Below, in pieces: positions 41,075 to 63,527 of a stretch of DNA of 64,000 bases (the stretch's first letter is position 1; every line of letters starts with the position of its first letter). Location of the stretch: NCBI GenBank assembly GCA_937877075.1, contig CALEGD010000065.1, positions 13,906 through 77,905 on the forward strand, read 5' to 3'. The position numbers and the translations under genes are program-made. The notes beneath the pieces were generated by a model. The model worked only from the letters and a program-made list of their open reading frames with translations, was not told the DNA's origin and did no database searches. Source of the DNA: an uncultured Acholeplasmatales bacterium (lineage in GTDB: Bacteria > Bacillota_I > Bacilli_A > ML615J-28 > CAG-698).

Positions 41075-44000
41075 TTAGAATCCATAAATGATGCTTGAAT
41101 AATTTCTCCACACATTTGTATTCTTATACGTGAATAAGCTAGATGTCGGAACATAGATCGTTAGTGAATAAGTATTATCCAAAGCATATGAATCTAGGGT
41201 TGGAGGAGTTGTGTTATATAGTCTTAAGCTGAAGTTGTTACAATAACTAAATGCAAAGGCATCTATTCTAGTAACATTATTCAAAATTACTTGGTTAAGT
41301 AAGGCACAATCATAGAAAGCACCATAGGCTATAGCTCCGCCATTCACAGTGACTTTTCTTAGTCCACTAGGTAAATAGAAAGTGGCAATCATGCCAACAT
41401 GATTTCTTTGCCTTGCACCAATACTACCCTGGTATTGTTCAGTACCAAATAGATATCCTAAAAGCATTGCCGTTTCTCTGTTCTTCCCTAAGAAGGGCAA
41501 ATTAACCTCAGTTAAACTGTTACAGCCACTAAATATATAATCCGATATATTATTAACAGAGTTTGGAATATTTACCGATTTTAAAGATGAACATCCCATA
41601 AAAGCATACTCTTCGATATCTGTTAGACTTGACGGCATCGCAATCGAAATTAAGTTGTTGCAATCTTTAAAGGCATATTTTCCAATAGTCAATACACCAT
41701 CAGGAATGTTATAAGTAGTATCTGTTCTTCCTATTGGATATAATATTAGCTTTGTGCCAGATTTGTCATATAAGATGCCATCGATACTTGAAAAGTAATT
41801 ATTTCCGGAAGCTACAACAATCTCTGCTATATTTCTATAATTTCTAAAGGAATACTCTGTGATTGTAGTTACTCCAGATAATAATTCAACTCTAATAACC
41901 CTATTATTAAAGGCATAATGATCGATACTGCTTACAGTCGAGGGGATAGTAATGTCAGTTGAATTACCAGTGTATTGGATGAGTTTGCCATTTTGAATAG
42001 CAAATCCATTACTATTAATAATTGTTTTTGAAAATATTGAAAAAGAATAACTTACCCAGCCTGTTGCTGACTTATAGCTTGATAATTGTAGCGAAGGCAC
42101 ATAAAATCTACGACCACTGCCATTATTCGTAAAAGCACCTGTTCCTAATACGGGTGGAGTTGTACCATTAAGAAAAACAGTGGCCAAGTCAGTACAATTA
42201 CTGAAGGCATTATCACCGATACTACTGATACTTGACGGTACAGTTATTGATAATAAGCTACTACAACCAGCAAATGCATTATTGCTGATAGTCGTAATGC
42301 CATTAGGAATAACGATACTATTCAAATTGCTACAACCACTAAAAGCGTAACTACCGATATTAGTCACATTTTTGATGGTTATTTCATTAATCATTACGCA
42401 ATTTGAGAAAGCGCCATAATTAAGAGAATTACCAGTTATATTTACTTTAACCAAACCACTTGGTATATAATATTTAATTGAAGAACCATTATATACTTGT
42501 GTTGCTTCAGTTGAGCCAGAATAACTAGTTGTTCCAAAAATATATCCAAATAGCGCACTTGCGTTTGTTGCTTCTTTACTCTCACCAACAAATGGTAAAG
42601 TCATTTCTTCTAAACCACTGCAACCACTAAAGGCATTACTACTAATGCTTACAACATTTGCAGGAATATTGATTGAATTTAAACTAGTACAGCCATTAAA
42701 TGCATAAGAGCCGATTCTGTTTAAACCATCGCTTAGAGCAATAGCTGTTAGGCCAGTACATCCAGAAAACAGATAATCGCTTAATGCAATAACACCGGAA
42801 GGAATTTCCAATACCGATAATTTTCTACAGCCAGCAAATGCATAAGAGCCAATACTTGTTAGATTTGCAGGAAGTGCTATAAATTCAAGTTCTAGGCAAT
42901 CGTTAAAAGCATAATTTCCGATGCTTTGAAGTTGACTATCTTCTTCAAAAACTACACTTTCTAAATTACTGCAACCCTTAAATGCATAATCATCAATCTT
43001 GGTAATTGAAGCAGGGATGGTTACACTAGTGAGATGATAATCAAAGGCATATGCGCCTATTTGTGTTACTGAGTCTGGAATCGTCACTTCATTTAAAGAT
43101 CCATGATATTGAATCAATCTACCATCTTGAATGGCAAAACCATTTTCATCAATTATTGATTCAGAATAGATATTACTTAAATAATTTTTCCAGTTATCTG
43201 CTCCTTGATAGGATGATAAACTTTCTAAGGGAACATATAACTTTACGCTTAAATTGCTTTCGAAAGCGCCATACTCTAATACTGGAGGAGTAAGTGGCTT
43301 CAGTATAACTGTTCTGAGATTATCAGAAAACTTGAAAGCATAATAACCAATATTTGTAACATTTGTTGGGATAATTATTGACTCAAGTCCATCACAATTA
43401 GAGAAAGCATAATCATCGATAATACTTAGTTCGCTATTAGGGTCAAAATAAACATTTCTTAGATTAGTATTGCCGTTGAAAGCATATTGACCAATCTTGG
43501 TTACAGTTGTTGGAATAACTATCGATTCTAAATCCAGGCAGCCATAAAAGGCATAATTTCCAATCAGTTCAAGTTGACTGTTTTCTAAAAATTCTACATT
43601 ACTTAGATTAATACAGTCCCTAAAAGCATTATTATCAAGTTCTATCACCGTATCCGGTATAGTAATATTTTCTAAACTGTCTCTAAAAGCATAGGCTCCA
43701 ATTTTCGAAACAGCATTAGGGATAGTAATATCGACTAAATCACCAAGATATTGAACGAGCAATCCCTCTTGGATTGCAAAGCCATTCTCATCAATGATTG
43801 CTTGCGAATGAATTATGTTTTTATAATTACTCCAAGGGTATTTTGCTTGGTAACTTTGTAATGCTTTTGCAGGCACATAGATTTTTAAACCAATATTGTT
43901 ATTTTTAAAAGCCTCAATCATCTCCGGAGGGGTAGGATTATTGCTGTAAACATATGTTAGATCAAGGCATTTATCAAAGGCAGCTCTTCCAATATTTGTA

Positions 44001-47000
44001 GTTGTTTGGGGGATTGTAATTGACATTAGTTTATTACAATTATAAAAAGCAGCTTCGCCGATATTTTCCATATTGTTAATAACAATTTCTTCAATCATTG
44101 AACAATTATAAAACGCACCGTAGTTTAGTTTGCTTCCAGTAATTTCTACCTTCTTTATACTTTGGGGAATATAATAGGAAGTACTTGAATCACTAGAATA
44201 ATATTGGGCGATATTGATAGCATTTGGATAAGAATATTTTCCAAATATATAACCAAATAAAGCAGAAGGACCCGTAGCATCTAAAGATGCCCCAACAAAA
44301 GGCAGTGTTAAATCAATAAGATTACCACAACTACTTAAAGCATTTTGGCCTATTGTTTCGACGGAGTCAGGTATTATTAAAGAACTTAAACCAAGACAAT
44401 TATTAAAAGCATTATTTCCAATACTAGTTAGACTTTCTGGTAATTGAATTGAAGTAAGACTAGTGCAGCCATTAAATGTATACTCGCCAATGCTAGTTAC
44501 ACCGGAAGGGATGGTTAGTGTGACGAGGCTAATACAATTAGAAAATAAACTGTCTTCTAATTTTTCTAATTGCGAATTTTCTTCAAGATTTGTATTTACA
44601 AGATTACTACAATACGCAAATGCAAAGTCACCTAGATACCAAAGCTTATTGTTTTCCTCAAAACTTACAGTTTCTAATTTACTACAACCAGAAAAAGCAT
44701 TATCATAAATAATCATTACTTCTTCAGGAATATTTATTGAAATTAGATTGCTGCAATTTGCGAGAGCAGAATAATAAATACCGATGGTTTCAGGCTTCAA
44801 AGTAGCGGACTCTAAGGTTTTACCAACAGTCCCCATGAGCCAATTACCTAAATATTTTAAGTTATTATCATAAATTTCATAGATGATTTTATTGGAGTTA
44901 TAAAAAGCATTCTGACTAATGCTAGTAACTCCATCAGGAATACTAATTGATTCCAGATTTGTACAGTAAGAAAATACATTATCACCGAGATAGTTTAATT
45001 TACTATTTTCACTTATGATAACAGTAACTAATTTGGAGCAACCAGAGAATGTAGAACCATAGAGAGAAGTTATACCATCGGGGATGGTAATTGATAAAAG
45101 ACTTGTACAATTTTCAAAGGCATTAAAGCCGATAGTTATTAGCTCACTATCTTCTGCCATGTTTACATTTTGTAGTTTGCTGCAACTAGCAAATGCGGAA
45201 TCGCCTATATTTACCACTGATTTTGGAATCGTAATTGAGACAAGATTATTACAATTATAAAATGCTTTTTCGCCAATACTAGTTAATTCTGTAGGAATTG
45301 TAATTGAAGTTAAAGTAGAACAATTATAAAAAGCTCCATAATTAATTGATCCACCAGTGATGACAACATTGCGTAAATTTGCTGGAATGTAATAGGTCAT
45401 TTTAGAATAGCTTGCATAAAATTGGTCAGTAGTGATACTTCCAGTATAGAAGGTTTGGCCAAAAATATATCCAAATAGCCTCTCACTAGCCTGAGTTGTT
45501 TTTCCAGCGCCAACAAAAGGTAGTACCATTTCCGTTAAGCCACTACAACCAGCAAAGGCTCCATCGCCAATTTTGCTTACTTTATCAGAGATATTTACAG
45601 AAGTAAGGTTCTTACAACCATAAAAAGCATTGCTTGCTATTTGGCCATCTTTAATAGTAACCTTCTTTAATGATGAAGGAACATAATTTGCATTAGTACC
45701 ATAACTAGTTGCACCAAAGATAAAACCAAAATGATTGTTACTGCTACTAATGCTTTCACCAACAAAAGGTAAGGTTATTTCTTCTAAGCTAGTACATCCA
45801 GAGAAGGCCCCACTACCAATACTCAGCACAGTGTCAGGAATAACAACTGAAGTGATATTACTGCAATTAGCGAAGGCATTATCATAGATACCAATAGTAT
45901 TATATTTAAAATTTATATTTGTAATAGTAGTGTTTACAGTGTCTATTAACCAGTTTCCTAAATATTTTAAGTTTCCGTCATAGACCTGATACTCCAATTT
46001 GCTATTATTAAACGCATCACGCCCAATTGAAGTTACGCTTTCTGGCATATTTAGTGAAGTCAAACTAGTACAGTTATAGAATGCCTTATCACCGATACTA
46101 GTAACTTCAGGAAGAGTAATCGAGTTCAAATTTCTGCAATTAGAGAAAGCTCCATATTTTATTTCGCCACCGGTGATTGTAACCTTTGTTAATTTCGAAG
46201 GTAAATTAAAGATTACCTTACCAGTTTCTGAATAATACTGCTCTACTGCTATACTTCCAGTAAAGGAAGTGTTCCCAAAGATGTTTCCGAATAAGGCTAA
46301 GTCTGGGGAAGCATTAATTCTAGTGCCGACAAAAGGCAGCGTCATTTCTGTTAAGTTTTCGCAACCTCTAAAGGCATTTCTGCCGATACTTGTTACACTA
46401 TCAGGAATAACCACAGTTGTTAGATTGTTGCAGCCAGAAAATGCCGATTCTGGTATCGTAGTCCCGCCGGTAACAGTCATTGTTTTTATTTTAGAACAGA
46501 TATTTGAACCAAATAAATTAGCTGCAGTCGTATACAAATAAGGTACTGTAATAGCTTCGATACTATTACAATTATAAAGAATAGAATTCCCCATTTTAGT
46601 TATACTATCAGGAAATACAATCTCCTCAATACTGATACAAAACGCAAAGGCGTAATCTTCTACTTCTGTAACTGACATTAAATTTACAGTCTTAATATTT
46701 ATACAATTGAAAAACGCACCATAATTTACTATTCCACCTGTAATCGTAACTGTATCCAATCCGGAAGGAATATAATAGGTTGCATTATAACTTTGGGGAT
46801 AAGCTGGGTTATAGTAATAGAATTGTTTCGCTGAATAACTACCTTCATAGTATGTTGTCCCAAAAATATAACCAAATAAAGAATTGGTTTGGGAGGTAAT
46901 TTTTCCACTTCCAATAAAAGGTAATGTCATTTCGGTCAAGCCACGACACCCGCTAAAGGCTGAACTGCCGATGCTTGTAACGCTATCAGGAATCACTAGT

Positions 47001-49624
47001 TTAGATAAACCAATACATCCTGAAAAAGCATTAGCACCGATAATTTTCAAACTACTATTGAAGATTACAGATTTTAGACCTGTACATCCCATAAATGTCG
47101 AGTCACCAAGACTGCTTAAATTATCTGGTAATCTAACTGACGTTAAGGAAGAGCAACCCATAAAAGCTGAGTCGCCGATTAGAGTTATGCTATTAGGCAT
47201 ATTTATAGTAGTAAGAATAGCACAATTTCTAAACGCATAGGCCTTAATTTCAGTAACATTTGAAGGTATTCTATAAGAACCAGTTTTACCTGCAGGATAA
47301 TGTATTAAGCTCGTTTCAGATTTATTAAATAGCACTCCGTTAATATCGGTATAGTTTTCATTTTCTTTATCTACATTGATATTTAATAAATTAGTACAAT
47401 TATAAAATGTATTCTCATCAATATTACTAACAGTATCCGGGATAGTAATTAATTCTAAACTTGAACAATTATAAAAACTTCCTGGTTTTAAGTCTCCACC
47501 TGTTATAGTGACAGTAGTTAAACTCAAAGGAAGATAATAAATTGTATATTTGTGCGAATAATATTGGCTTGCCATATAACTGCCTTCAAAGAAGGAATTG
47601 CCAAATAGATAACCAAATAAGGCATCGCTTTCGACTGCATCAATACTAGCCCCAATAAATGGTAAAGTAATTTCAGTTAAAGCTGTACAACTAGCGAAAG
47701 TATTCTTTCCAATTGTTTGTACAGAATCAGGAATGACAATAGAGGTTAGTTTCTTACAATTCCAAAAGGCATTATCACCGATATAAACGATACTTGATGG
47801 TAAGCTTATACTTTCAATATCGGTATTCATAAAGCCATTATGATCTATACCAATAACCGGTTTTCCACTATAAAATTCAGGAATAACTATATTTTTAGAT
47901 TCTTCATTCCCCGCAGATACATAATATACATCATCTACAAGAATGTAATTCAAACCAAAGGTTGCTTGTTCATCACTAAACCATTTCGCATAGAATACTT
48001 TATCGCCTTTGCTGTCTTGAGGAATAGAGAATATTGCCTGACCTTCAAAATCAATATTATCATACCAACCAGCAAAAGTATTAGTACCCTTGGTGGGATC
48101 TCTCAACTCTATTTCGTCGTCAACATTATAAGATTCAGGATTAAATTGATCATTTAGACCACCATTAAGATTATAGGTAATGGAATATTCTTTTGGTGTC
48201 CATTTTGCCTGCAAGTTTAGAGCGTGAGAAGGCATATTAAATGTATATTCCATCTCAGTTGAAAGTAAATATTCACCATCATACCAACCAAGAAAAGAAT
48301 ATTCGTCTTTTAAATTGCTATCAGTTGTAGTTTCAGCAATAACAGTAACTGGGGAATCAAAATCAAAACTTGCATTTGTTCCACCATTGTTGAAACTAAT
48401 TTCTCCAGAGCGTTCATTGTTTTTTGTAAGAGTTACTTCATACTCATTTATTGTATATACTGCCTTGAGGTTTGCGTTTTCGGTATTATGCCAGAAAGAT
48501 AAACCTCTTCCTTCCTCATCAGTATATTGAATTTCATTTTGATACCATCCTGTAAAGGTATGTCCTTCTTTCCTTGGCACAGGCAATTCATATGCATCAT
48601 TATATCTGATGGCCTTTGTTGCTTGACTTACATTTCCGCCATCAGGGTCTAAAGTAATGTTGTATTCATTTGCGATAGGACTAACCTTTATCTTCAATCC
48701 ATCCCTAGCTAGGAATTCAGAAGGTTCTTCTATAATTTGATATGAACCCGAAGCTAAATAAGCCCATTTAAAATCAGAATAGCCTAAGTTTGCTTTGTAT
48801 TCAAACTCTGGAACACTTAAATAGCTATCGGTTGCATAGTGATGAGTTATGATAAACTCACCATTCTGATCATAATAAGAAACTAAGAAAGTGCTTTTTT
48901 GTTCTATCGTTAATCTAATACTTTTAGATTCTTCTGGCAGAAAAATATAATAAACTTTTCTTTGTCCAGGACTTATTTCTATTACAGTATTAGAAACTTG
49001 ATTTTTCCCATCTTTATCTTCACATAAATCCCATCTCCTAGAAGAACTGATATAGTCTGCTAAACTGATAGATTTAGTATTATATGGAACTCTTAAATAT
49101 AACTCATCCGAGAAATTTGATACATTTAAGATTTTTACCATTCCATTTGATATTGACAGATTCGAAGCGATGTAAGATTTGCTTTCTTGAGTAAAGTAAT
49201 CTTTATCTTCTGAATAAAAAGGTACTTGTTCGCCACTGCCTCCATTTCCAGTTTTGTAAATCTGAGTCATTCCCATCATGCTAAAGGTAAGGACGCCATC
49301 CTTAACTGTGCCACTCATGAGTTCTTCTTCTTCGCCAAACACTTCAGAATAGAGGGTTATTTTATCTCCATTTAATTCAAATCTACCTCCCATTCCGTCA
49401 TTGTCGGTCCACTTGTTTCCACTTTTAAGTTCAAACCAAGATTCTTCATTTTTGAATTCGCCATCATATTGATAATATTTTCCAGAAATGCCTCCTCCTT
49501 GACATCCCGCTATCGGAAAGATTAACAAAGTAGCGATCAGAAAGAAGAATAGTTTAATAAACTTTCTCTTAACTGATTTCTTCACGATTTTCTTCTCCTT
49601 TAATTTTAGAAATTGTAAAAACAA
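41075..49624 (-). CDS. giant surface lipoprotein: 3 Listeria-Bacteroides repeats followed by dozens of BspA-type leucine-rich repeats
   Basis: 2849 aa. Lipobox IAGCQGGG. Repeats ending ...GHTFTGWY / FLGWY / FAGWY. Recurring LRR unit IPDSVTSIGxxAFxGCxxLTxITLP with super-repeats of ~110 aa and FAIQxGxLxQYxG modules. Confidence 0.8.
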   Translation of the reverse strand: MFLQFLKLKEKKIVKKSVKRKFIKLFFFLIATLLIFPIAGCQGGGISGKYYQYDGEFKNEESWFELKSGNKWTDNDGMGGRFELNGDKITLYSEVFGEEEELMSGTVKDGVLTFSMMGMTQIYKTGNGGSGEQVPFYSEDKDYFTQESKSYIASNLSISNGMVKILNVSNFSDELYLRVPYNTKSISLADYISSSRRWDLCEDKDGKNQVSNTVIEISPGQRKVYYIFLPEESKSIRLTIEQKSTFLVSYYDQNGEFIITHHYATDSYLSVPEFEYKANLGYSDFKWAYLASGSYQIIEEPSEFLARDGLKIKVSPIANEYNITLDPDGGNVSQATKAIRYNDAYELPVPRKEGHTFTGWYQNEIQYTDEEGRGLSFWHNTENANLKAVYTINEYEVTLTKNNERSGEISFNNGGTNASFDFDSPVTVIAETTTDSNLKDEYSFLGWYDGEYLLSTEMEYTFNMPSHALNLQAKWTPKEYSITYNLNGGLNDQFNPESYNVDDEIELRDPTKGTNTFAGWYDNIDFEGQAIFSIPQDSKGDKVFYAKWFSDEQATFGLNYILVDDVYYVSAGNEESKNIVIPEFYSGKPVIGIDHNGFMNTDIESISLPSSIVYIGDNAFWNCKKLTSIVIPDSVQTIGKNTFASCTALTEITLPFIGASIDAVESDALFGYLFGNSFFEGSYMASQYYSHKYTIYYLPLSLTTVTITGGDLKPGSFYNCSSLELITIPDTVSNIDENTFYNCTNLLNINVDKENENYTDINGVLFNKSETSLIHYPAGKTGSYRIPSNVTEIKAYAFRNCAILTTINMPNSITLIGDSAFMGCSSLTSVRLPDNLSSLGDSTFMGCTGLKSVIFNSSLKIIGANAFSGCIGLSKLVIPDSVTSIGSSAFSGCRGLTEMTLPFIGSGKITSQTNSLFGYIFGTTYYEGSYSAKQFYYYNPAYPQSYNATYYIPSGLDTVTITGGIVNYGAFFNCINIKTVNLMSVTEVEDYAFAFCISIEEIVFPDSITKMGNSILYNCNSIEAITVPYLYTTAANLFGSNICSKIKTMTVTGGTTIPESAFSGCNNLTTVVIPDSVTSIGRNAFRGCENLTEMTLPFVGTRINASPDLALFGNIFGNTSFTGSIAVEQYYSETGKVIFNLPSKLTKVTITGGEIKYGAFSNCRNLNSITLPEVTSIGDKAFYNCTSLTSLNMPESVTSIGRDAFNNSKLEYQVYDGNLKYLGNWLIDTVNTTITNINFKYNTIGIYDNAFANCSNITSVVIPDTVLSIGSGAFSGCTSLEEITLPFVGESISSSNNHFGFIFGATSYGTNANYVPSSLKKVTIKDGQIASNAFYGCKNLTSVNISDKVSKIGDGAFAGCSGLTEMVLPFVGAGKTTQASERLFGYIFGQTFYTGSITTDQFYASYSKMTYYIPANLRNVVITGGSINYGAFYNCSTLTSITIPTELTSIGEKAFYNCNNLVSITIPKSVVNIGDSAFASCSKLQNVNMAEDSELITIGFNAFENCTSLLSITIPDGITSLYGSTFSGCSKLVTVIISENSKLNYLGDNVFSYCTNLESISIPDGVTSISQNAFYNSNKIIYEIYDNNLKYLGNWLMGTVGKTLESATLKPETIGIYYSALANCSNLISINIPEEVMIIYDNAFSGCSKLETVSFEENNKLWYLGDFAFAYCSNLVNTNLEENSQLEKLEDSLFSNCISLVTLTIPSGVTSIGEYTFNGCTSLTSIQLPESLTSIGNNAFNNCLGLSSLIIPDSVETIGQNALSSCGNLIDLTLPFVGASLDATGPSALFGYIFGKYSYPNAINIAQYYSSDSSTSYYIPQSIKKVEITGSKLNYGAFYNCSMIEEIVINNMENIGEAAFYNCNKLMSITIPQTTTNIGRAAFDKCLDLTYVYSNNPTPPEMIEAFKNNNIGLKIYVPAKALQSYQAKYPWSNYKNIIHSQAIIDENGFAIQEGLLVQYLGDLVDITIPNAVSKIGAYAFRDSLENITIPDTVIELDNNAFRDCINLSNVEFLENSQLELIGNYAFYGCLDLESIVIPTTVTKIGQYAFNGNTNLRNVYFDPNSELSIIDDYAFSNCDGLESIIIPTNVTNIGYYAFKFSDNLRTVILKPLTPPVLEYGAFESNLSVKLYVPLESLSSYQGADNWKNYLSNIYSESIIDENGFAIQDGRLIQYHGSLNEVTIPDSVTQIGAYAFDYHLTSVTIPASITKIDDYAFKGCSNLESVVFEEDSQLQSIGNYAFNDCLELEFIALPANLTSIGSYAFAGCRKLSVLEIPSGVIALSDYLFSGCTGLTAIALSDGLNRIGSYAFNGCTSLNSINIPANVVSISSNAFSGCSGLEEMTLPFVGESKEATNASALFGYIFGTTSYSGSTEATQVYNGSSIKYYIPSGLVKVNITGNSLNYGAFSNCVMINEITIKNVTNIGSYAFSGCSNLNSIVIPNGITTISNNAFAGCSSLLSITVPSSISSIGDNAFSNCTDLATVFLNGTTPPVLGTGAFTNNGSGRRFYVPSLQLSSYKSATGWVSYSFSIFSKTIINSNGFAIQNGKLIQYTGNSTDITIPSTVSSIDHYAFNNRVIRVELLSGVTTITEYSFRNYRNIAEIVVASGNNYFSSIDGILYDKSGTKLILYPIGRTDTTYNIPDGVLTIGKYAFKDCNNLISIAMPSSLTDIEEYAFMGCSSLKSVNIPNSVNNISDYIFSGCNSLTEVNLPFLGKNRETAMLLGYLFGTEQYQGSIGARQRNHVGMIATFYLPSGLRKVTVNGGAIAYGAFYDCALLNQVILNNVTRIDAFAFSYCNNFSLRLYNTTPPTLDSYALDNTYSLTIYVPTSSLFTYKNTNVWRNYSSIIYGF

Positions 49625-51542: not shown

Positions 51543-52832
51543 TTATATAGATTTTTCCCCTCGATTTAAAATTTTAATTACACCCTTTTTCTTGATTTGC
51601 TCTATAGAACTTTCAACTACTCTTCCTATTGTTACTTGACCATTAGAATCGATTACAATTGAAGCTTTTTGAACTTTAACTCCAGTTGCCTCAATATCAC
51701 CGCTTCCTTTAATAATAATATCTAATTTTTTACAATATCCATTTTTCAGATTAATATTACCATTTCCAGAAATACGTAAGTTTGCTTCACCTTCACCACT
51801 TATATTATGAAGTGTTATATCTCCAGATCCATTTATATTTGCGTTAGTTGAAACCAAATTTTTAACATCAATATCACCTGATCCATTTATTGATGCATCC
51901 AATTTATTAACATTTTCCCACTCTATATTTCCTGAACCATTAATTAATAAATTACCTGTTTCGGTATTTTTTGCTTTTATTAAACCAGATCCATTTATTG
52001 ATGAGATGCATGATTCAAAATTATTCATCTTAATAATTCCTGATCCATTTATCATTAATTTGCCATTTTCAAAATAACTTATCTCAGATATCAACTCTCC
52101 ACTACCATTTACTTTTACTAGCGCAGTTTTACCTGTTTCACATGGTAATTCAACAACTATACTATTTTTTTGATATGATGTATTATTATATCCCTCTTTA
52201 TTATCAAATCTAATAATTAGTTTCTCTTCTTGAACTTTTATATCCAACATTTTAATAAATCGTGTTTCGCCATTTGCATGAACTCTACATTTATTATCTT
52301 TTGATTGAATAATCTCACACTTATTTAAAAGCACTTCAATATCCAAACTATCAATATAATCAAACTCATAGTTTTTTGATTCTTTTGAAAAATCAATATT
52401 ACTATCTACATCATCTAAAACCAATAACCTTATCTCCCCTTGTCCAACATTAATAACTAAGTTATTAGATAATTCCGCTGTACTACCATCTTTAAATTTT
52501 ATTCCGGAACCATCGATAGAATCTACAATTTTTGAAGAATAACAAGCTTTGTTTTGATATTGATGTACTAATTCCATACTCTCATAAATCTTAGGAAATG
52601 AAATATCATTTTTTAAATTATTCTTTTTAATACCAAATAAATAATCAATCTCCACATTAAAAATAGTAGCAATCGTTGGAATTAGTGTAATATCAGGATA
52701 ACTTTGATCGTTTTCCCATTTTGATACTGCTTGTCCTGTAACTCCAAGTCGTTCAGCAAGCTCCCCTTGAGTCATATTTTTCTTAGTACGTAAGTCGTGA
52801 AGTCTTTTTCCAAATCCATCAAAACCAAACAT
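51543..52832 (-). CDS. XRE-family HTH fused to DUF4097 (beta-helical putative-adhesin) repeats
   Basis: N-terminal LRTKKNMTQGELAERLGVTGQAVSKWENDQSYP. C-terminal repeated INGSGDI / ISGNGNI / IKGSGDI beta-strand units. Confidence 0.7.
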   Translation of the reverse strand: MFGFDGFGKRLHDLRTKKNMTQGELAERLGVTGQAVSKWENDQSYPDITLIPTIATIFNVEIDYLFGIKKNNLKNDISFPKIYESMELVHQYQNKACYSSKIVDSIDGSGIKFKDGSTAELSNNLVINVGQGEIRLLVLDDVDSNIDFSKESKNYEFDYIDSLDIEVLLNKCEIIQSKDNKCRVHANGETRFIKMLDIKVQEEKLIIRFDNKEGYNNTSYQKNSIVVELPCETGKTALVKVNGSGELISEISYFENGKLMINGSGIIKMNNFESCISSINGSGLIKAKNTETGNLLINGSGNIEWENVNKLDASINGSGDIDVKNLVSTNANINGSGDITLHNISGEGEANLRISGNGNINLKNGYCKKLDIIIKGSGDIEATGVKVQKASIVIDSNGQVTIGRVVESSIEQIKKKGVIKILNRGEKSI

Positions 52833-53251: not shown

Positions 53252-53328
53252 CAGAGTATAGCTCAGTTTAGTAGAGCGCTTGATTTGGAATCAAGAAGTC
53301 GTGGGTTCAAATCCTTCTACTCTGACCA
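53252..53328 (+). tRNA. tRNA, probably Pro (anticodon UGG), with encoded CCA
   Basis: Cloverleaf by hand. Acceptor CAGAGTA/TACTCTG, D-arm GCTC-AGTTTAGTA-GAGC, anticodon arm CTTGA-TTTGGAA-TCAAG, T-arm GTGGG-TTCAAAT-CCTTC (one U-U mismatch), discriminator A + CCA. D-loop and T-loop match Firmicute tRNA-Pro(UGG), but position 37 is A, not G. Confidence 0.6.
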
Positions 53329-56478: not shown

Positions 56479-56647
56479 AAATTATATCCTTTCTCTTTAC
56501 AAAATTACACTAAATAATCAATAAATTATCATCATTTATTCCATTAAGTATTTATTTACAAAAACCACAACAAAATGATAACACATTTTTTAAAATATTG
56601 CACCGATTTATTAGTTCATTAATAATTATTACATTTATCTATTCTAT

Positions 56648-56757
56648 CGGCTCAACATGTCGTGTCAAAGTCATCCTTGTCGACAGACAGTCCAATGACG
56701 ACGTCTTATTTCAGTCTTTGATAGGTCAGGACAGTCTTGATGTATGTCGGACTTGTC
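56648..56757 (+). repeat. GC-rich GTC/GAC-word intergenic repeat, copy B
   Basis: ..AAGTCATCCTTGTCGACAGACAGTCCAATGACGACGTC.. shares AAGTCATCC and GTCGAC with copy D, and the GACAGACA..GAC..CGTC core with copies A and C. Confidence 0.6.
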
Positions 56758-56854
56758 TATTTAATTTTGAAAAAACTTTATATTACTCAAAATAATAGTT
56801 TATTTTAGTAAATATAATAGATTATAAAAAGCATGCAATAGCCGTTATCTAGCT

Positions 56855-57208
56855 TTAAACATTAGTTAGATAGTATTGTGCGTTTTGTAAAGACATTACT
56901 ATATCATCAATATTACCATCAACTTTAGCATTTAAACAATTAACACTCACTTCCGCGATCACATGTACGAAATTAGTACTATACCAACTATTAGTTAAAT
57001 CCTCATTTCTTTTCATTTTAACATAATTATATATTCTACTAAAGTCGTGTTTAAAGACTTTATATTTGTTTCTTATATCTTCTAATTTAACATTTTCATT
57101 ATTAATAAATTCAGCTATTTGCAAAATCGCTTTTAATTCATTTAACTTATTTTCTAATATATCTTTTAATTCTTTAGCATCTAAACTTTTATAATCCATA
57201 ATCCCCAT
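56855..57208 (-). CDS. hypothetical protein (downstream partner of the kinase gene)
   Basis: 117-aa ORF. Same strand, 200 nt after the kinase gene. Confidence 0.3.
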   Translation of the reverse strand: MGIMDYKSLDAKELKDILENKLNELKAILQIAEFINNENVKLEDIRNKYKVFKHDFSRIYNYVKMKRNEDLTNSWYSTNFVHVIAEVSVNCLNAKVDGNIDDIVMSLQNAQYYLTNV

Positions 57209-57412: not shown

Positions 57413-58966
57413 TTAATAATCAGTTTTTCCATATAGAATATTTTTTATTTCTTGTTCTATTGCTTTATTATTTTTTAGATTTTGTGCCAAATCATTAGCA
57501 CTATACCTTATTGTTGAACATCCGTATAATATAAGCGCAGCGTGAAATTTAACGTTTATATTAATTTTGTTATTCAAAATTATCTTATATGATAATTTAC
57601 TAAAGTAATCATAATTATGAAATTTGCCATAACCAGTCGCGTCTACATAATTAGATTTAATAGATATAATTGTCTTTTCTTGTAAATTATACTCCAATTG
57701 TTCAAATATTAAATCAAAATTATTTAGTTTGTTTTCTATGATAAAGTAAGATACATTATTATTGTTAACTAAATCTATAATATATTTTTCTTCAGATTCG
57801 CCGCAAATTCCTATATGAATATTGTTTAAAATATTTATTTGATTAAAGCCATTTAATTTAATTTGAATCAACTGATTTATAGCTATTATTATCTCTTCAT
57901 AATTATTATATCTATCTTTTTTTTCATACTGTAAACATTTATTTATTATCGGTAAAATGTAATTACTTTTACCAAATGTGCCATCGCCCATAATATAATC
58001 CATTATCTTGCCCACAGAATATATATCACTCTGAATATCAACATTTTTAAAATTTTTAAACCCTTCCGGAGAAATAAATGCGTGATTATTCTTTCTTCCA
58101 GAAGATGTAATCAAACTTCTTATAATGGAACTATCTTTGCCTAAACCAAAATCTGCAATTATCAGAGAATTATTTTTTATTAATAAATTTCCTAAATGTA
58201 AATCTCTATGAATAATTCCATTCAGGGCAGCATAATTTAACAATTCTAAAATCTCTAAAATAATTTTAATTTTTCTGTTTTCAGTTAATATATTATCATT
58301 TAAATATTCAAATAAATCACATTCACATCTATCCATTAAATAAGATAAATTAGCAGCATCAAAATCGTATACTCTAAGGAATCTACTATTTGAAGATAGT
58401 TTTTCCATCATTTGATACTCATATTCAAATCTCTTCTTATTTTCTTCAGTGAGACGTTCTCGTTTTAAAGTCTTTCGTACTAAAGTATCATTCAAAATTT
58501 CAACATAACAAAAATATCCATCCCTTGTTTCATTACTATTTATTATTCTTGAATATTCTTTGTCATCAATTATAGTAAGTTCATTTCTATTTAACATAGC
58601 TTTAATCTTTTGACAGAATTCATAACATACATTATCGTTAGTAATATTCTTATTATATAAATTATATATTGCTTCAATAAATTTAATTTTGGTATCAGAA
58701 TTTACTCCTTTAAACTCATCAATCAAATTCATTTGATCATTATAATTAATGCCTACCTTTGTATAAATGTAATCTTCTAAGGAAAAATAATCGTGCCTAA
58801 AATGACTTTTTTCTAAATATTCATCTAATATTAAACCTTCATAGTAATAATTCGTCTTCGTAATCTTATTACTTGTAAAATTTTCAATTATGTAATCTAA
58901 AAATATTTGAAATGATTTTGAATCAATCATAAAATCTTCTCCTACTCTTGTGTAATTGTTTATCAT
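57413..58966 (-). CDS. eukaryotic-like Ser/Thr protein kinase domain flanked by N- and C-terminal domains of unknown function
   Basis: Central kinase core: LVRKTLKRE (beta-3 Lys), HRDLHLGNLL catalytic loop, DFGLGK, FISPEG, DIYSVGKIM. About 140 unknown residues before and ~160 after. Confidence 0.7.
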   Translation of the reverse strand: MINNYTRVGEDFMIDSKSFQIFLDYIIENFTSNKITKTNYYYEGLILDEYLEKSHFRHDYFSLEDYIYTKVGINYNDQMNLIDEFKGVNSDTKIKFIEAIYNLYNKNITNDNVCYEFCQKIKAMLNRNELTIIDDKEYSRIINSNETRDGYFCYVEILNDTLVRKTLKRERLTEENKKRFEYEYQMMEKLSSNSRFLRVYDFDAANLSYLMDRCECDLFEYLNDNILTENRKIKIILEILELLNYAALNGIIHRDLHLGNLLIKNNSLIIADFGLGKDSSIIRSLITSSGRKNNHAFISPEGFKNFKNVDIQSDIYSVGKIMDYIMGDGTFGKSNYILPIINKCLQYEKKDRYNNYEEIIIAINQLIQIKLNGFNQINILNNIHIGICGESEEKYIIDLVNNNNVSYFIIENKLNNFDLIFEQLEYNLQEKTIISIKSNYVDATGYGKFHNYDYFSKLSYKIILNNKININVKFHAALILYGCSTIRYSANDLAQNLKNNKAIEQEIKNILYGKTDY

Positions 58967-59070: not shown

Positions 59071-59182
59071 TCGACAGTCAGTCTCTAGTCGACATCTTCT
59101 GTCGTCTGTCATTAACCGGTCAGACAGACAAAAAGACATCGTCGTTCAATTGACAATGTCTTAATTTTGTCCTATCTATGTC
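59071..59182 (+). repeat. GC-rich GTC/GAC-word intergenic repeat, copy C (longest)
   Basis: ..TAGTCGACATCTTCTGTCGTCTGTCATTAACCGGTCAGACAGACAAAAAGACATCGTCGTTCAATTGACAATGTC.. with internal inverted repeat GTCTGTC / GACAGAC. Confidence 0.6.
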
Positions 59183-59326
59183 GGAATATGAGGGTTTATC
59201 TTGGTCTCTCTTACCATCTTATTCAAGATCTTCCTTAGATATTTGCTTTGTATTCCTATAATGCTAGTATTGTTTATAATATATCATTAAAAGATTGAAG
59301 GAAATTATTTAGTTTATAAAATATAA

Positions 59327-60283
59327 TTATTTAAATTCTTTATTTACATATTTATCATATAAACATAAATCATCATTAATTTTTATTATCATTAATACAT
59401 ACAGCATAAGAAAAATCATATAATCTTCCTCATGTTGTTCAGATTCTGTACCATGAAGATAACTATTTCTTAAATCTAACCCGTTCGTAAATGTGGATTT
59501 ATTTAAATAGAAATTTAAATAATCTATTTCAGGCTTTGAAAATAATGTATCTCCATATATAATATAATCCTTTTTAAAGAGTATATCAAATTTGCATCTC
59601 GTTTCACCGGGATAATAATAATAAGAAATTACCTCGTTAAAATATAAGTCTTTTAATATTCTTATTATATCTTTGTCTATATATGATAAGTATCCTGTAT
59701 TAGAAATATTTAAAATATCATTATCGCATAGATATTGTATAGAAATCTTTTGAAATTTTTCGTACTCCTTTATATTTACATTTCTTGATATTAATGCATT
59801 ATCGAGATTTTTATATTCTTTACCTTTACCATTTTTTCTGAAATATCCAAGTAATGTTTGATCAGAGAATAATAAATACATGATTTGCTTACACTTTTCA
59901 GAATTATTGTTTAAATATACATACTTTCGTGAAATAGCACTTGGAATATCTGAAAATTGAATTGGGGATGAGAAGTTCAATAACTCTTGTGTTATTTTTT
60001 TATCCCTCACCCAAAGCCTATATTGTTTAAGGCTTTTTTCCATCTCTGGTGCTATCATTCTACATTTTTCTAAATAGGATGACTCTTCTGAAGGTATTTC
60101 TATTTGGAAATTTTTTATTTTAAATTCATTTTTTAAATAGTCTTTAAAAAACCATGATATTATTTCTTCGAAACGAATTTTTAAATTTAACAACAGCTTA
60201 TAATATGATCCCATTTGCAGAATTGCAAATCTATTTGTCATATCAAAAGCAACACCTTTTATATAGTCATTTTTAGAATACAT
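59327..60283 (-). CDS. Abi_2 (AbiD/AbiF)-like HEPN protein, probably part of a disrupted larger gene
   Basis: C-terminal LDLRNSYLHG fits the HEPN R-x4-H motif of Abi_2 proteins. The same frame is open without any start codon up to a tandem stop TAA GTA TAA at 60581-60589, then open again to 60862. Confidence 0.4.
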   Translation of the reverse strand: MYSKNDYIKGVAFDMTNRFAILQMGSYYKLLLNLKIRFEEIISWFFKDYLKNEFKIKNFQIEIPSEESSYLEKCRMIAPEMEKSLKQYRLWVRDKKITQELLNFSSPIQFSDIPSAISRKYVYLNNNSEKCKQIMYLLFSDQTLLGYFRKNGKGKEYKNLDNALISRNVNIKEYEKFQKISIQYLCDNDILNISNTGYLSYIDKDIIRILKDLYFNEVISYYYYPGETRCKFDILFKKDYIIYGDTLFSKPEIDYLNFYLNKSTFTNGLDLRNSYLHGTESEQHEEDYMIFLMLYVLMIIKINDDLCLYDKYVNKEFK

Positions 60284-60914
60284 AAAAATTTTTTCAAATA
60301 TGCCTAAATCTTCTCTTTTTGACGTATTAGAAAATCTAAAATTTTCATCAACATAATCAAAGAGATAGATAAAGTTATTAAGTAGTGTAGAGTAATCAGG
60401 GTTCTGTTCTATCCATTTTATACTATATTTAGCGATTAAAGTTAAACCATCTTTTTCCCGCTTGCTATATATTTTCCTTGCTTCAACCTGACTTTCAATA
60501 AAAATGATATTTATGCCAGTATAATACCCACTATTACTAGGGAAAAGTTTAGCCTCTAATTTTTCTGCCTTTTTTTTGCTTTATACTTAGTTATATCTGA
60601 TAATGAAAATTCTTTTATTAAGAACTAATCTTATATAATTTAAACTTGCATTTTTACTATTAATATATTCTAAAATAATAGCTTCTTTATCTACTGTGGT
60701 TAATTCTTTAGGTAAATATAGATTATTTTCACTTTTAATAACGTATTTATCTAAAATTAATTCACCTGCCTTTGGATACTTTAATAACCTTTGTTTTATT
60801 TGCTCCCCGAAAAAGTTTACTAAATTTTTAAATTTAAGTATTGATCCAATATATACATTTTTAATTTATATAAAACATGAAAATGTCTCATTACTTATTG
60901 ACTTATAAATCTTT

Positions 60915-63440: not shown

Positions 63441-63527
63441 ACTTCACGCATCATCCGCCAAGTCATCCAATCTTCATTAAGTCATTTGTCGACCTCTTCT
63501 GTCGTCAGTCATTGACAGATCGTGTAT
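63441..63527 (+). repeat. GC-rich GTC/GAC-word intergenic repeat, copy D (internally deleted version of C)
   Basis: ..AAGTCATCC..TTTGTCGACCTCTTCTGTCGTCAGTCATTGACAGATCG.. matches copy C 25/27 over GTCGACMTCTTCTGTCGTCWGTCATT, then skips two internal segments. Confidence 0.6.

Follow-up and report, generated by a model that had tools for sequence, protein, structure and literature searches.

The kinase gene and its surroundings

The window (the whole stretch of 64,000 nucleotides analysed here) carries a gene for a Stk2-like Ser/Thr kinase within a very low-GC stretch (0.21-0.28), with a decayed defence-candidate gene on its upstream side and a short ORF of the same orientation on its downstream side (Table 1). 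The ORF list contained the kinase ORF as a sequence-only reading of the same DNA had described it. Within this ORF, the true start is likely the second ATG (M13), giving a protein of 505 aa, since an AGGAG ribosome-binding site lies 8 nt upstream of it, the N-termini of homologues align to M13 in the family alignment and no Shine-Dalgarno sequence precedes the first ATG, which instead overlaps a TATAAT-like box. The gene thus has a good ribosome-binding site and a promoter-like -10 box. By homology search, an identical protein was found only in metagenome-derived records, where it was recovered from independent assemblies.

Table 1. Features of the kinase locus and of the rest of the window, in window coordinates.
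Feature	Position	Strand	Details
Stk2-like Ser/Thr kinase ORF	57413..58966	-	517 aa maximal; probable 505 aa from ATG 58930
Ribosome-binding site AGGAG	58939..58943	-	8 nt upstream of second ATG (58930)
Clade-specific N-terminal domain (residues ~13-136)	58559..58930	-	mixed alpha/beta; AF2 pLDDT 88.6
Hanks-type kinase core (residues ~137-366)	57869..58558	-	Gly-loop DGYFCYV, K165, E183, HRDLHLGN, DFG, SPE, DxxSxG, R352
C-terminal all-alpha domain (residues 367-517)	57416..57868	-	nine helices, ARM/HEAT-like; AF2 pLDDT 94.4, pTM 0.88
117-aa ORF	56855..57208	-	204-nt spacer to the kinase
RNA hairpin, terminator-like core 59162..59133	59109..59191	-	dG -30.7 kcal/mol, z = -4.85
GC-richer intergenic element	59100..59200	-	holds the strong hairpin
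47-nt repeat, copy beside the kinase	59075..59121		overlaps the GC-richer element
47-nt repeat, other copy	63475..63521		79-84% identity; upstream of a 419-aa lipoprotein gene
318-aa ORF	59327..60283		intact; C-terminal half of PDC-S56
Reconstructed PDC-S56 gene	59327..60814	-	two in-frame stop codons
tRNA-Pro(TGG)	53252..53328	+	beside the start of the very low-GC stretch
HTH_3 + DUF2807 protein	51543..52832	-	54-nt periodic repeat
BspA-type leucine-rich-repeat surface protein	41075..49624	-	2,849 aa; Listeria-Bacteroides repeats

On its upstream side, the kinase is preceded by the strong hairpin, which sits between it and the neighbouring gene. On its downstream side, the spacer before the 117-aa ORF holds a weak hairpin with a T-run after it; this hairpin was statistically indistinguishable from shuffled sequences (z = -0.6). 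Together, the strong upstream hairpin and the weak downstream hairpin with its T-run suggest that the kinase forms a separate transcription unit, which the upstream hairpin probably insulates. Given the low score of the downstream hairpin, we base the monocistronic reading mostly on the spacing, on the ribosome-binding site that the 117-aa ORF has of its own and on the lack of conservation of the pair.

The neighbour beyond the strong hairpin is an intact 318-aa ORF that matches the C-terminal half of the PADLOC candidate PDC-S56. The sequence upstream of it continues in frame through two stop codons, and the gene reconstructed in this way matches profile positions 151-644 of 649 with 523 bits, about the first 150 positions being missing. 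Because of the in-frame stops and of a reconstruction that begins at profile position 151, we consider this gene to be a pseudogene devoid of its 5' end. The C-terminus of the remnant has an RNSYLH motif (Rx4H, HEPN-like) and a weak match to DUF4209. A HEPN/Abi-like gene had been proposed at this place: a defence candidate with an HEPN-like motif is indeed there, but as the 3' part of a pseudogenised PDC-S56.

The kinase had also been placed in an accessory island bounded by two repeat copies. The island is compatible with what we found, as the very low-GC stretch begins beside a tRNA-Pro, which fits a tRNA-adjacent island; within the window, neither an integrase nor an att duplication was found, and Rfam matches were to tRNA only. 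The boundaries were not supported: by repeat search, BLAST and MAFFT, the two 47-nt repeats are the only clear pair and do not flank the kinase on both sides, and the block at 56640-56790 could not be aligned by BLAST. The repeat copy nearer to the kinase overlaps the GC-richer intergenic element, which could act as a terminator or insulator, or represent a small mobile repeat.

Kinase core, flanking domains and relation to Stk2

The kinase motifs named in the sequence-only reading are all present in the middle of the protein, at LVRKTLK 162-168 (with K165), HRDLHLGNLL 253-262, DFG 272-274, SPE 299-301 and DIYSVG 314-319, and Pfam Pkinase matches residues 159-332 (E=1e-19). In an alignment of 39 family members, K165, E183, H253/R254/D255, N260, D272/F273/G274, P300, D314/S317/G319 and R352 are invariant, and the Gly-loop of the window kinase is degenerate. 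Judged by these residues, the alignment shows a complete catalytic core of Hanks type. Its nearest PDB structures are those of Stk1, StkP and PknB (E about 1e-32). A Pfam search found no PASTA domain in the protein, and no membrane segment was found either; since its most hydrophobic 19-residue window reaches a mean Kyte-Doolittle value of only 1.38, we take the protein to be cytoplasmic. The kinase is thus, as had been proposed, not a wall sensor of the PknB type.

The family alignment also revealed that the lysine of the catalytic loop (HRDLKxxN) is absent from both clades of Stk2 described below, being replaced by His in one (the sister clade) and by Ser or another residue in the other (the canonical clade). 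A missing catalytic-loop lysine is unusual among Hanks-type Ser/Thr kinases and may be tied to the regulation or the substrate selection of the family. As the canonical clade has Ser or another residue at this position, the His of the window kinase is in itself no argument for inactivity.

Then, we compared the protein with models of defence systems. The PADLOC Stk2 model (PDLC02375) aligned residues 63-511 with profile positions 58-498 of 500 (E=6.9e-53, 178 bits) and was the sole full-length family match, whereas the models of other defence kinases (PD-T4-6, MAD6 and MkoA) covered the kinase core only, with far lower scores. By homology search, the protein belongs to a family of ~489-505 aa proteins of Bacillota with 30-44% identity, its closest relative (47% identity) being in a Candidatus Izemoplasmatales MAG. 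Alignment of the family shows that Stk2-type proteins, as grouped by their sequences, fall into two clades, one large (canonical) and one rare (sister), that have the kinase and the C-terminal tail in common and differ completely in their N-terminal domain. The canonical clade comprises at least 615 clusters, with Macrococcus, Mammaliicoccus sciuri and Lactococcus among its members, and has the loop HRD(L/I)SxxN and a normal GxGGF glycine loop, while the sister clade, to which the window kinase belongs, has the catalytic loop HRDLH(L/I/P)GN and a degenerate glycine loop. Sister-clade proteins scored 178-198 bits against the Stk2 model and canonical proteins 443-713 bits, with the same end-to-end layout, so that the window kinase reaches roughly one quarter to less than half of the canonical values. 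By BLASTP, a canonical-clade protein of Mammaliicoccus sciuri was 33% identical to the window protein over residues 165-511 (E=1e-38).

These comparisons place the window gene, as far as homology can tell, as a divergent relative of Stk2, which varies a defence system already known rather than founding a new one. The link to the experimentally tested Stk2 of Staphylococcus epidermidis RP62a is made by the name of the PADLOC model and by the Staphylococcaceae members of the canonical clade, with the Macrococcus and Mammaliicoccus proteins as its nearest stand-ins. Like that Stk2, the window gene encodes one cytoplasmic protein, about 500 aa long, whose central Hanks kinase is intact but for the catalytic-loop Lys and whose C-terminal helical domain, including the NYD...RY region, is homologous; the profile match is nearly full-length, there is no conserved partner gene and the context is accessory, mobile and defence-related. 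Unlike Stk2, it has HRDLHLGN in place of HRD(L/I)SxxN as catalytic loop, and DGYFCYV in place of GxGGF as Gly-loop. Among the family features compared, the one that it lacks is an N-terminal non-catalytic domain homologous to that of Stk2: its own, of about 125 aa, has no detectable homology.

Both regions that flank the kinase core are conserved family-wide in the alignment and are therefore family-defining domains. The C-terminal one carries the conserved motifs ATGYG...NYD...RY and is common to the sister and canonical clades in our alignments. It had no significant fold match in the PDB (Foldseek best E=0.31, TM about 0.5), and its weak Foldseek matches were all ARM/HEAT-type alpha-solenoids (CAND1, ZYG11B, importins and TOG domains). 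The N-terminal domain had no fold match in the PDB (Foldseek best E=0.24, TM 0.25), and neither flank matched PDB sequences by sequence profile better than E=0.26; PDB searches found no solved structure covering either of them. When N-termini of the sister clade were compared with those of canonical Stk2 by hhalign, homology was not detected (probability 5%, only the last 29 columns being aligned).

An exhaustive search of 1.84 billion representative proteins with a profile of the N-terminal domain gave 52 matches, nearly all located N-terminally in ~490-505-aa proteins or in short apparent fragments. The 10 matches that we inspected all align with the sister clade, with HRDLH in each one that reaches the catalytic loop. 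On this sampling of sequences, the domain appears exclusive to the sister clade, and the window protein would be a Stk2 chassis (kinase and helical tail) carrying a clade-specific N-terminal domain. The flanks had been described as free of recognisable motifs and the architecture as one that could not be placed. The first statement still applies to the N-terminal domain, for which we obtained no fold or PDB-profile match, but not to the C-terminal one, which is ARM/HEAT-like and shared with Stk2; the second has to be abandoned, as kinase and C-terminal domain are the Stk2 architecture and only the N-terminal domain is left unplaced.

Other kinases resemble the window protein over a shorter part. 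The cores of PD-T4-6, a single-gene kinase defence of E. coli, and of MAD6, the kinase of MADS, align with it (E=1e-22 to 1e-6), but these matches are confined to about residues 156-334 and neither flanking domain is in common. Against the NCBIfam model of MAD6, the protein scored 52 bits for a cut-off of 460, and against that of the PASTA kinases (PknB_PASTA_kin) 57 bits for a cut-off of 450. In contrast to the window protein, the PASTA kinases Stk1, PknB and StkP are encoded by conserved housekeeping genes and contain PASTA repeats as well as a TM segment. PHROG 4972, a phage-encoded family of 501 positions and unknown function, aligns by its positions 147-499 with residues 160-511, while its N-terminal 146 positions are unmatched; this match shows that phages or prophages carry Stk2-type genes as well. 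In the phage collection searched, no relative of the kinase was found among the phage records, and plasmid matches covered the kinase core only (31-33% of the protein).

Genomic context of relatives

For the context of relatives, we took the six genes closest to each homologue, clustered them and annotated the clusters that recurred. Large serine recombinases (12 loci) and Schlafen/AlbA_2 proteins (10 loci) recur in both clades. Around canonical genes, we found the type I restriction subunit HsdR directly downstream (11 loci), HsdS (10 loci), HsdM (7 loci), cytosine methylases of the C5-MTase type (5 loci) and Shedu SduA_C (4 loci), and around sister-clade genes SIR2-domain proteins (SIR2_2) of about 1,050 aa (4 loci) and HNH nucleases (3 loci). 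Given these recurrent defence genes and recombinases, the family resides in defence islands and mobile elements. The relatives are thus indeed found in defence islands, and the flanking domains match no housekeeping family; the opposite of either result would have spoken against the defence role put forward in the sequence-only reading. That proposal of a kinase acting as an abortive-infection effector against phages is instead strengthened, with Stk2 as best match, relatives in defence and mobile contexts and a decayed defence candidate next to the gene.

In the canonical clade, hsdR lies directly 3' of the kinase at L039, L047, L049, L058, L060, L061, L062, L064, L069, L071 and L077, most of these loci having hsdS and hsdM upstream of the kinase. 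This arrangement recalls PrrC and RloC, which are embedded in type I R-M operons, and hints that Stk2 may be functionally linked to type I R-M, for example as a back-up once R-M has been neutralised. In the sister clade, four Lachnospiraceae loci (L013, L014, L015 and L019) have the kinase followed by Schlafen/AlbA_2 and then by SIR2_2; an HNH nuclease is directly upstream in three of the four and serine recombinases recur upstream, so that the whole looks like a mobile multi-defence cassette. Shortened or fragmented sister-clade kinases, called at 189-338 aa, were present in Virgibacillus soli (two copies, L035 and L036) and Cohnella soli (L034), and such copies in several genomes suggest that the gene frequently decays in this clade.

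Proposed function and alternatives

Few abortive-infection systems are based on a kinase, Stk2 being one of them. It consists of a single gene (PMC6532042). In S. epidermidis, the kinase is activated by the phage protein PacK and goes on to phosphorylate many host proteins; death of the infected cell precedes phage release (PMC6532042, PMC9146914, PMC13276650). In view of the nearly full-length match to Stk2, the invariant catalytic residues, the absence of TM and PASTA segments, the absence of a conserved neighbour and the defence context, we consider it likely that the window gene encodes a standalone cytoplasmic abortive-infection kinase, from a rare sister clade of the Stk2 family. If it works like the Stk2 of S. 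epidermidis, the kinase would be kept inactive up to the moment when a phage protein produced in the infected cell engages one of the non-catalytic domains; once activated, it would phosphorylate many essential host proteins, and growth would stop or the cell would die before phage progeny could be released. One of the non-catalytic domains would then mediate sensing or auto-inhibition.

Since the N-terminal domain shows no sequence relationship to its counterpart in canonical Stk2, the trigger in the sister clade may be other than PacK, and regulation may likewise differ. A broader version of this idea is that the Stk2 family is modular, combining a chassis of kinase and alpha-solenoid with interchangeable N-terminal domains, and that the domain of the sister clade is an alternative sensor or regulatory module with a trigger differing from PacK; we put this forward tentatively, regarding it as possible but rather doubtful. 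If the swap of N-terminal domains is real, kinase-based abortive infection would have a second class of specificity. The Stk2 characterised in the literature that we found comes only from staphylococci, and no solved structure was found for the non-catalytic domains. With the kinase and tail in common and different N-terminal domains, the two clades offer a natural domain swap by which the phage-sensing part could be sought. As regards annotation of genomes, the window gene is an ordinary defence-finder match rather than a new system that cannot be placed.

The closeness of the 117-aa ORF, in the same orientation and 204 nt away, raises the alternative of a two-gene module in which its product would be a regulator, substrate or antitoxin of the kinase. 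The co-orientation noted in the sequence-only reading is correct, and the pair is preserved on contigs L001 and L002, both of which have the identical kinase protein and the same gene order. Against this, the 117-aa protein is an ORFan, as no homologue other than itself was found in 5.8 billion clusters and no family match in four family libraries, and among the 82 kinase loci searched by tblastn neither this ORF nor any other window neighbour lies near the kinase at any of the 80 homologous loci other than L001 and L002. The co-occurrence in defence islands of relatives that the module predicted is therefore not observed (0/80), the spacer with its hairpin, T-run and separate ribosome-binding site argues against a joint unit, and Stk2 itself works as one gene (PMC6532042). 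We thus regard a two-gene module as highly improbable. The JGI name "oligoendopeptidase F" given to the 117-aa ORF looks spurious, the ORF being only 117 aa long and having no family match.

Another explanation would be a signalling kinase that regulates the physiology of the host, or the mobile element that carries it, and plays no part in abortive infection. It would agree with the proximity of the core to Stk1, StkP and PknB in the PDB and with the absence of a relative from the phage records searched, but such housekeeping kinases typically have the TM or PASTA sensor that the window protein lacks, the distribution of the family is sporadic and accessory, its neighbours are defence genes and recombinases and the only full-length family match is to Stk2, so that we give this explanation little chance. 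The decay of the neighbouring defence gene indicates that the window locus may be under relaxed selection, and the kinase could be a relic of a defence locus in decay, intact in appearance but no longer functional. The PDC-S56 pseudogene next to it, the shortening of the kinase elsewhere (for example in both Virgibacillus soli copies and in the Cohnella soli copy) and the extreme AT-richness of the locus speak for such a relic; the ORF is nevertheless full-length, with all invariant catalytic residues and both flanking domains, it has a good ribosome-binding site and a promoter-like -10 box, and the identical protein recurs in independent metagenome assemblies, which makes a silent relic improbable. 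An abortive-infection kinase of the Stk2 family is the reading that we favour.

Elsewhere, the window contains genes for sugar utilisation and for surface proteins. The BspA-type surface protein accounts for most of the direct-repeat families of the window, and a periodic repeat is also present in the gene for the HTH_3 and DUF2807 protein.
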